From: Psilocybe cubensis
Taxonomy: Eukaryota
Reading direction: 5' to 3'
DNA: 64,000 nt
Assembly: GCA_017499595.2 (NCBI GenBank)
Contig: CM039004.1
Span: 1,922,001 to 1,986,000, forward strand
Position 1 is the first letter of the stretch, and every line of letters begins with the position of its first letter. This document shows positions 39,893 to 42,136 of the stretch, piece by piece. The translations under genes and the position numbers were made by a program. The notes under the pieces were generated by a model. It was not told the DNA's origin, did no database searches, and saw nothing but the letters and a program-made list of their open reading frames with translations.

Positions 39893-42136
39893 TTAGGATG
39901 TTGGGAGCGGCGGTGGGGCATCAGGCTGAGGAGCGAAAATCAGATGTAAGGGCGGAGTTGTTTGACTATCCTCGCTGAGAAGGGTAGCGATAATAGACCT
40001 GCCGGCAAAGGACCTTCCAGCCAAGGCGTTCAACGCCTTGGAGGCATCCTCAGGTTTGGCATACTTAACATACACACGGCCAACACCCGCAGCTTCATCC
40101 AAGCGGGCAGCGTCCTGCGCGGTGATACCTGACTCGCCCCATTTAGATTTGTCCTTCTTGACAGGCCGAGGAATTCTCAGATCCTCCACCTCTCCGTAGT
40201 TGGCGCATTCCTCCTTTACGTCTTCGTAGAGATCACCGTAGTCCGAGTCGTCGACGAGGTCGTCGTTCGTGACCATGTTCAACATCAGCAAGATGCGGGC
40301 ATCGGTTGTTGGGTCCTTGCCGGCTGGCATGATAGGTCGAGGAATCTCGAACTGGTCGTAGGGCAAGTTGGGGTTGGGCATGAGACCTGGCGTACCAGGT
40401 TTAGCGCCCACTGAGGCACGCTGAACGACGAGGTATCGATCGCCAAGTTCCATTCCGTTCAAGCTCTGGATTGCGACGTCAGTAACGCCAGCGTCGACGT
40501 ACTCAAAGAAGGCAAAGCCCTGTGACAACAGACGCAACGATGTTAATAACGGCTGCAACATTTAATGAGGTAGGAAATTGATTTCTCACCTTGGATGCAC
40601 CAGTTCCGTTTTCTCGGACGAGGTTGAATGCTTTTAGTTCGCCGAAACTCTTAAGAAGTTCCATAACGTTTTCTTCATTGAGGTAGGTCGGGAGGCCGCC
40701 CACGAATACTTTGTTAATAGAGTCAGGGACGTTAGTAGACACAACACCTGGAACATGGACACCGGGGGATGCCATTTCCATGCCGCCGTAGTCTTTGGGA
40801 CGGCGAATTTTGAGGGGTCCATTGATGAAAATGATTCCATCAAAGGCCATAGCTGCAGTTGCATCTTCCGCACTTCGGAACTAGGTAGCATACAAGTCAG
40901 AAAAAAGGCCATGATACTCAAATGAATAACATTTACCTCGACAAATGCATAGTTCTTTTCGTAGTTACACTGGACGGCGAGAACGGGGTTTCCAGGTCCA
41001 CCCGTACCAATGCTCATTTCAATCATCTTGGAATTGAAGAAATCTGCAAGGTTTTGCTCGTTGACATCAGGGGTAATGCTGCCAATGTAGAGACGACGAG
41101 ATTGTCGAGACAAGTTAGGGTTGGCGCCAATTCCCATGCCGAATGTCTGGACAGGCATCGGTGGAGGAAGACCAGCAATCCCGAGGATAGGAGGAATCTG
41201 AGTGCGGTTAGCGCCGGGAAGGTTGAACAGACCTGATGTGAAATGTCAGAATTGTCGTTAGTCAATGGGTTAGGCAACGGACCGGTTTGTTTGGCTTGCA
41301 TAGCGGTGTACTGCTCATATCCGGGGGCATGGACATCCCAACCTGAAGCCTTGCGTTTCCTCTGTGACAGAGGGACGGCACCTTCGGGGGTCGGTGACCT
41401 TCTTTCAGGTGTGCCCATGCCGTCTCTACCCTTCCCCCTTCCACGCCGCTCACCACGAGGGGGACCGTCATCTCTGCCATGACCGCCACGGGGTGGGCCA
41501 TAGTCTTCGTCCCGGGCACTTCGATAGTCACGTCGTCGGTCATCATCGTGCCTCGAGGGTCTCCCCCCGTGGTCGTCTTCGCGTCCCCCACGACCGCCAT
41601 ATCTGTCACCACGGTCCCTGTCACCGCCTCTCCGGCCGCCACGATCCCTGTCGCCGTATCTGTCGCCTCCCCCTCTGTAGTCGCGGTCGCCGCGGTCGCC
41701 CCCAATACGGTGGCCCCCGCGATCGTCACGGGTGGAGCGGTACCTGTCTTCACCGCGGCCATTGCTTCGTTCTGTATGAAAAAAGAAAAAGAAAAAGAGA
41801 GATTGGGTGAGTAATCGGTGGAATTAATCTGGAAAGGTCAGTGTGCGTCAAGTAAGAGACGGAGGCATGGCATGTGGACCATTGAGGACTGTTCTGGCGC
41901 TAAAAGGATAACACTGCTAGGCTAGATGGAGGAAAGGAACGCCAGAGAAAGGTAGGGCTTTGTCTCTGCGCCGTTGCTGCTGCTGCTGCTCGCTAGCTGT
42001 GAAAACAAGAAAGCATGGTGCAGAAGAAAAAGAAGAGTGCACCATGAGCTTACAGTTTGTACTAATGTAATTGAAGAGAAACAGGAGAAAAGGAAAGGGA
42101 AAAAAGCACTGGAGACTTACGATATTCGTCGCCCAT
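39893..42136 (-). CDS. U2AF2: U2 snRNP auxiliary factor large subunit (U2AF65/Prp2/Mud2 family)
   Basis: Arg/Asp/Gly-rich N-terminus and [10 protein letters not shown] (ULM). RRM1 [21 protein letters not shown]2 [17 protein letters not shown], and a UHM ([24 protein letters not shown]). Exon 1 is ATGGGCGACGAATATC, then a 349-nt intron at 41772-42120. Confidence 0.93.

Follow-up and report, generated by a model that had tools for sequence, protein, structure and literature searches.

Intron 1 of the U2AF65 gene of Psilocybe cubensis lies in a 64,000-nt stretch of contig CM039004.1 (the window, in whose coordinates all positions are given) and is 349 nt long (42120-41772, minus strand), far longer than introns 2-4 of the same gene (50, 56 and 70 nt). 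The question raised by this locus is what the long intron does. A first-pass annotation, which had remarked on the same length difference, proposed that intron 1 hides a nested poison-exon cassette with a polypyrimidine tract in a hairpin loop, acting as a U2AF-sensing feedback switch. Our analysis shows that the hairpin and the acceptor were right, and that the proposed splicing route was wrong.

The U2AF65 gene and its upstream neighbor

The P. cubensis U2AF65 ortholog is encoded on the minus strand at 42136-39893, and the window DNA is present once in the P. cubensis genome. Orthology was judged by an RS/RD-rich N-terminus, a W-containing motif, RRM domains and similarity to named orthologs. 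The protein alignment, RRM_1 matches and a named ortholog all support the assignment, and the last exon is 100% identical to the P. cubensis public model P0001, 'Splicing factor U2AF 65 kDa subunit'. The coding part of exon 1 (42136-42121) contains 16 nt and ends in phase 1, as placed by the P0001 start and a splice joint at 42121; the first exons of relatives are likewise short and end in phase 1. Exons 2-5 (41771-41283, 41232-40937, 40880-40590 and 40519-39893) were assigned from joints in two sequencing runs, X1 and X2, together with P0001 identity and the RRM matches. Removal of the whole 349-nt intron 1 yields the N-terminus of P0001, in agreement with the in-frame product predicted earlier. 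Many of the public models of this gene (P0003, P0030, P0055, P0005, P0017 and others) are truncated or start with translated intron sequence, probably because of intron 1.

A FIS1-like gene (Fis1_TPR_C) begins at 42271 on the plus strand, head to head with U2AF65 and ~135 nt from its ATG, and inspection by eye shows it upstream in many of the related loci. One X1 contig (record 3) is unbroken from the first exon of the FIS1-like gene to U2AF65 exon 1, and the 5′ ends of the two genes may overlap or abut. The motif CGGAGYYYSAA (42201-42191, minus strand) lies between both start codons. Of 80 related loci, 27 carry it, at ~40-130 nt from the U2AF65 start codon in those inspected by eye, and the window contains 2 matches against 0.58 expected. 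Judged from sequence, it is a candidate element of a shared promoter.

An alternative 3′ splice site in intron 1

Four sequencing runs were assembled as contigs over the window, two of which (X1 and X2) come from one study. None of the runs listed is recorded as RNA; the RNA status of X1 and X2 is a guess by the tool, and introns 2-4 are spliced out in both. In a 285-nt contig from X1, 42121 is followed directly by 41996, with 124 nt removed (42120-41997; GT..AG, or CT..AC on the forward strand), and the contig continues through 41772 into exon 2. An X2 contig runs from exon 2 into the same extension, and ends exactly at 41996. The 5′ splice site, GTAAGT (42120-42115), is shared, and is used with either acceptor. 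The proximal acceptor AG|CTAGC, preceded by a short pyrimidine run (42013-41992, with the AG ending at 41997), is conserved, and its use adds a YAGC-rich extension of 225 nt (41996-41772) to exon 2, with a premature stop TAG at 41919-41917 after 31 codons. The form proposed earlier would indeed end after 32 codons, at 41924-41922; the observed form reads a different stop.

The extension is continuous into exon 2 in X1 (record 2), in X2 (record 4) and in a transcript contig of a distant relative (L057), showing no cassette donor. The unproductive event in Psilocybe is a plain alternative 3′ splice site, without a cassette exon. That the unproductive site exists and is used is close to certain, and the expectation that a stop-bearing alternative isoform is really made holds in X1, X2 and L057. 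A 10-nt deletion (41863-41872) in X2 and in the other two runs, X3 and X4, lies inside the extension and past the stop, an allele tolerated in non-coding sequence.

The distal, productive acceptor (41813-41772) consists of the branch TACTCAC (A at 41808), a long U-rich tract and ACAG. It is defined by the P0001 reading, and the main X1 contig (record 1) ends exactly at its boundary, 41771. By back-calculation, the binned X1 depths require one unlisted record, with ~30 nt at each end of the long intron. Such a record fits the productive joint, and we infer that both isoforms occur in one run. The X1 depths are ~202 for the proximal arm and ~59 for the inferred productive joint; these are one figure per contig, and give no isoform ratio. 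X1 and X2 have no contig over 41997-42120, and are uninformative on intron retention.

A hairpin over the predicted branch site

The only branch-like word between 42053 and the proximal acceptor is CTCAT (42048-42044), which is of the same CTYAY type as the distal branch, and is the predicted branch site of the proximal acceptor, with its A at 42045. Sequence, folding and alignment place this A in the 5′ arm of a hairpin, CATGGTGCA (42046-42038), which is followed by a loop of 15 nt (42037-42023) and the 3′ arm TGCACCATG (42022-42014). The perfect 9-bp stem and the all-pyrimidine loop are as first annotated, and the loop is a candidate U2AF65 site. The hairpin had been placed adjacent to an internal donor; it is conserved, and overlies the predicted branch point instead of standing beside a working donor, with the predicted branch A in the second base pair of the stem.

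The stem exceeds chance expectation: a perfect stem of at least 9 bp arose in 4 of 300 shuffles of intron 1. The 57-nt hairpin stretch folds at z -3.2, though the intron as a whole does not stand out (z -1.1). Rfam covariance models gave 0 matches at E up to 10 across 41600-42300. Two pattern searches, which diverged copies could escape, found a single hairpin element in the 46.6-Mb genome, that of the U2AF65 gene, and this confinement fits a gene-specific circuit.

Conservation of the element in Agaricomycetes

Related loci came from one metagenome scan aimed at Agaricomycetes, and comprise 80 of 135 confirmed stretches. The distal acceptor was located in 71 of the 80, always in phase 1. The other nine include L005, which looks chimeric, four that start late (L011, L016, L040, L049) and four with broken frames (L042, L060, L067, L071). 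Upstream of the match, L005 (745-1557) is bacterial-looking and unrelated, and the contig is probably chimeric. L044 and L045 have too little upstream sequence.

The CTYAT(C)GG stem arm and the AG|CT[AC]GC acceptor are both kept in 59 of the 71 loci, while 7 have the acceptor only, 1 the arm only and 4 neither (2 of them too short). One of the acceptor-only loci is an intron-removed transcript, and three more still match a search model, R1. This model gave 46 matches at E up to 1 in the window and the 80 loci, missing L047/L069 and the L050-type variants. The Amanita-like L014 and L046 have kept the acceptor without the 5′ arm; L043 is without the acceptor; L063 and L065 lack both motifs, having lost the hairpin and the proximal acceptor by deletion.

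Both motifs span Agaricales, Boletales and more distant lineages. The nearest named proteins are from Agrocybe, Pholiota, Crassisporium, Tricholomella, Collybia, Leucocoprinus, Suillus, Rhizopogon, Lanmaoa and Scleroderma, and from Dentipellis for the more distant group. A protein tree of 99 rows was poorly resolved, and its sole use was to group loci with named proteins from Agaricales and Boletales; long-branch loci were left unplaced. The loci are related, not independent, and kinship inflates the conservation and enrichment counts given here; the invariance of alignment columns is partly by construction, because elements were chosen for carrying these motifs.

The distance from the first donor to the distal acceptor is ~220-470 nt in relatives in which exon 1 was located by script, against a median of 51-53 nt for introns 2-4. 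Checking intron length and stem in orthologs had been suggested with the first-pass annotation, and both are kept. The hairpin element shares a median of 10 nt with the window, compared with only 5-6 nt for introns 2-4.

By folding prediction, the putative branch A is paired (p>0.5) in 39 of 53 distinct elements, a count made by hand, and the three bases after it in 47 of 53. The lineage of L047 and L069 is one in which this A is predicted to be unpaired. Among the 22 distinct elements matching the complete two-arm pattern, the loop is 10-26 nt long and has a median pyrimidine content of 94%. Stem pairing is found in 92% and 96% of alignment cells, compared with at most 52% for slid controls. 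Covariation is weak: one doubly changed pair was found in 3 related sequences among 33, and none among 20 core sequences, and RNAalifold returned no consensus structure on the gappy alignment A3. The sequence of each arm is itself conserved, as it would also be if a protein bound there. The case for the structure is not a statistical one, but comes from complementarity that persists through loop expansion, stem shortening and G-U changes; where the loop has grown or the stem has shortened (L050-type and L056-type loci), the CATGG/CCATG base is retained. A role for the stem is quite likely.

Several lineages have departed from the common form. In the Scleroderma-like loci (L021, L023, L026, L028-L030, L032, L034, L038, L039, L048, L055), a GT/GC microsatellite expands the 3′ arm, the 5′ arm has an extra C, and several copies have broken exon 2 frames. 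In the Agaricaceae-like loci (L050-L054, L072-L081), only the CATGG/CCATG stem base is left, flanking an insert of 40-60 nt that contains a further pyrimidine run and CAG. The first intron begins with GC (GCACGT, GCGAGT) instead of GT in L059, L061, L063 and L065.

Transcript contigs were available for five of the related loci. In the spliced transcript of L057, from the distant group, ~70 nt are missing (GT..AG), ending at the proximal acceptor, which is an independent use of this site. The contigs of L018, L041, L046 and L069 retain the hairpin intron with at least one downstream intron removed, and that of L018 terminates in a poly(A) run. The productive form was not seen in these five loci, whose contigs may merge molecules. 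The unproductive form was thus readily assembled from wild-type samples (X1, X2 and all five transcript-type loci), and its being so easily found in untreated samples argues against efficient NMD.

The extension and its three acceptor modules

A stop in the incoming frame is present in 54 of 58 distinct extensions, the other 4 being open. The extensions are 63-225 nt long, and all three frames occur among them. They are enriched in YAGC words (140 observed in the 58 distinct extensions, compared with 84 ± 7.5 in shuffles). The CAG run pointed out in the first annotation is present as five CAG units at 41991-41977. It is not kept in the five close relatives aligned and was rejected as a conserved repeat, the enrichment being limited to dispersed YAGC.

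Intron 1 and its extension contain three acceptor modules. The proximal module is made up of the predicted hidden branch, the looped tract and AG|CTAGC, with 48 nt from the predicted branch to the AG. The middle module (41841-41829) consists of a consensus branch, CTGAC, and a CAG shortly downstream, and lacks a pyrimidine tract. It is conserved: a CTRAY with a YAG soon after, lying 43-66 nt upstream of the distal AG, occurs in 31 of 57 distinct extensions, compared with 6.7 ± 2.2 in shuffled sequence. Its use was not seen, with no joint to it among the contig joints listed. In the distal module the branch is weak, and the median branch-to-AG distance is 30.5 nt, compared with 14-16 nt in introns 2-4.

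A proposed switch, and alternatives

We propose that the first intron of U2AF65 in Agaricomycetes works as a conserved switch to unproductive splicing, of the concealed-branch-site type known from SF3B3 and serving negative feedback by U2AF65, and assign this reading a probability of about 0.6, which includes U2AF65 as the factor sensed. The SF3B3 stem, which hides the branch of a poison exon, is a precedent that we count in its favor. In the proposed switch, one donor would choose between the distal acceptor, with its long open U-rich tract and full protein product, and the proximal acceptor, with its branch at the base of the stem. Use of the proximal site, or failure to splice, gives a message with an early stop. 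The stem, if folded in cells, would make the proximal acceptor low-affinity, and U2AF would be contested between the two tract-bearing acceptors. When U2AF65 is scarce, the distal tract would win and full protein would be made. When it is abundant, the loop and the short tract would be occupied by U2AF65 with U2AF35, SF1 and U2, and the two or three base pairs over the branch would open. The remaining 6-7 bp would shorten the 48-nt path from branch to AG, so that the donor-proximal site wins. The resulting dead-end message, which might be removed by NMD or retained in the nucleus, would close a negative feedback loop.

A more specific version, which we hold tentatively and at somewhat below even odds, is a ladder of three acceptors by which U2AF65 would gauge its own free concentration. 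Binding to the loop tract would fray the stem, free the branch A and divert most transcripts, and the middle module would act as a decoy for SF1 and U2AF35.

The stem might instead be worked by another controller, namely SF1/BBP, U2AF35, RBM39/Caper, PUF60, U2 snRNP or temperature, making the intron a site of cross-regulation or environmental control. The invariance of the arms in sequence, without covariation, would suit such a factor, and the YAGC words and second consensus branch enriched in the extension point to U2AF35 and SF1. The SF3B3 stem answers to several U2-associated factors and, preliminarily, to heat (PMC11162794). Against this, the loop conserves pyrimidine content and not sequence or length, as expected for U2AF65, and the element is confined to the U2AF65 gene. 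We consider another controller unlikely, at roughly one chance in five.

Less probable still is that the stem serves as a bridge and not as a gate, shortening the distance from branch to AG and giving the proximal site a constant rate of use, which would set U2AF65 output without sensing. Yeast structures between branch and 3′ site are cited in PMC11162794. The 48-nt distance, compared with 14-16 nt in the other introns of the gene, and the lineage in which the branch A is predicted to be unpaired are in keeping with a bridge. However, the 3′ arm covers the branch A in most lineages, which a mere bridge would not need, and the loop is held pyrimidine-rich.

The unproductive isoform could also be a coding alternative, in which re-initiation gives a shortened U2AF65 without the RS region, or in which a small peptide is made. 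NMD can be weak for stops near the start codon, and here the premature stop is close to it; in addition, many gene models begin just before or after the W-containing motif (P0005, P0007, P0009, P0017). This reading is very improbable, given that candidate Met codons are not conserved, that the extension varies in length and frame as described above, that the three further ATGs in it all end in stops, and that it carries the 10-nt deletion allele.

We regard as equally implausible the route first proposed, in which an 8-nt micro-exon (42061-42054) between introns of 59 and 57 nt, nested as a cassette, would be the regular path to the stop-bearing exon. The splice-like words on which it was based are all in place (AG at 42063-42062, a good-looking GTAAGC at 42053, and CACAG ending at 41997), and its intron lengths are typical of the gene. 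The sole joint listed in intron 1, however, skips 42120-41997 in one piece, including the 8-nt exon, and no joint at 42062 or 42053 is among the X1 and X2 contig joints listed, although contigs can drop rare forms. The GT of the internal donor is found in 1 of 52 distinct elements, that of the window itself; in relatives the GTAAGC aligns with GAAGC, GATGC or TGAGC. This donor lies 8 nt from the predicted branch A, which is too close for a lariat, and sequence inspection found no other branch-like word between 42053 and 41997.

A small internal exon does exist in many relatives. It is a different one, with its donor (..AG|GT) 42-93 nt upstream of the branch motif, and is included in the transcript contigs L018 (33 nt) and L069 (24 nt). 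P0053, a 99% match to L018, leaves it out. For the remaining loci, the acceptor of this exon was chosen from several possibilities, which makes a triplet length provisional there. The nested architecture first described resembles that of relatives rather than that of P. cubensis. L056, L058, L066 and L070 have a 9-nt micro-exon (CAG|RCGACAGAG-like|GT) before a shortened 6-bp hairpin, and in L058 and L066 the extension has no in-frame stop; in this lineage the switch may have turned into a coding alternative.

Comparison with known systems

The closest system is SF3B3 (Li et al. 2024, PMC11162794), in which a stem conceals the branch sites upstream of a poison exon and reacts to U2-associated factors, U2af38 among them; the survey in that paper covers six animal species and no fungi. 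The SF3B3 and U2AF65 elements share a conserved stem in the gene of a 3′ splice-site/U2 factor, with a stop-bearing segment downstream. The branch adenosine is paired in the SF3B3 stem, and is predicted to be so in most of the fungal U2AF65 elements. SF3B3 has a cassette poison exon, whereas in fungal U2AF65 an alternative 3′ site extends exon 2 without a cassette donor. The branch lies in the right arm in SF3B3 and in the 5′ arm in fungal U2AF65, and the SF3B3 stem has 14-17 bp with a loop of 5-8 nt, compared with 9 bp and a pyrimidine loop of 10-26 nt here. By this analogy the U2AF65 element would work like the SF3B3 stem, yet is not a member of its family, being in another gene and of another sequence.

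The large-subunit gene of C. elegans, uaf-1, is said, in work by Zorio in 1997 and MacMorris in 1999, to contain a stop-bearing exon rich in 3′ splice-site repeats, for which autoregulation was reportedly proposed. The likeness is that of a U2AF large-subunit gene with an unproductive isoform full of acceptor-like words, and the difference is that uaf-1 uses a cassette exon in a different position. C. elegans uaf-1 is not known to have a branch-hiding hairpin. The available portions of PMC13247117 and PMC2762039 hold nothing on uaf-1 feedback.

In cTNT intron 4, a structure is bound by MBNL1 or U2AF65 (Warf et al. 2009, as summarized in a review, PMC7404189). There too, a 3′ splice-site region either folds into a stem-loop or stays single-stranded, and U2AF65 binding goes with one of these states; in contrast to the fungal element, the cTNT case is mammalian, concerns tissue-specific exon choice by a competitor, and involves neither the U2AF65 gene nor an unproductive isoform (PMC7404189). 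It provides a precedent for structure-dependent U2AF65 binding.

A poison exon in RBM39 mediates autoregulatory unproductive splicing, according to PMC10477243 and PMC13075997. RBM39 and U2AF65 have in common a conserved stop-bearing isoform in a splicing-factor gene, with feedback proven for RBM39 and inferred for fungal U2AF65. A conserved premature-stop isoform in a splicing-factor gene, a feature of autoregulatory alternative splicing coupled to NMD, is seen here in the stops of 54 of 58 distinct extensions. Retention of intron 11 of Arabidopsis U2AF65a, giving a truncated protein (PMC545797), is a different event. A screen for structured RNAs in fungi (PMC8216456) covered Ascomycota only, with Basidiomycota excluded, and its main text, as available, makes no mention of U2AF. 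We found no description of the U2AF65 intron 1 element in the literature within reach, with supplements, motif tables and subscription papers beyond it. Feedback loops are described there for many splicing factors, and none was found for fungal U2AF65.

Significance

Control of its own level by the core 3′ splice-site factor U2AF65 is little described. The ~60-nt element, with its predicted hidden branch, exposed tract and fixed AG, would be easy to mutate in transformable mushrooms, and makes two questions testable: whether U2AF65 autoregulates, and whether a tract displayed in a loop can open a branch site. If the proposed switch is true, the concealed-branch-site mechanism would be present in fungi as well as in animals. 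If the three-acceptor ladder is also true, a core 3′ splice-site factor would be governed by a protein-gated RNA switch across mushroom-forming fungi, with U2AF65 reading tracts in a dose-dependent manner in organisms whose ordinary introns hardly have a tract between branch and AG.
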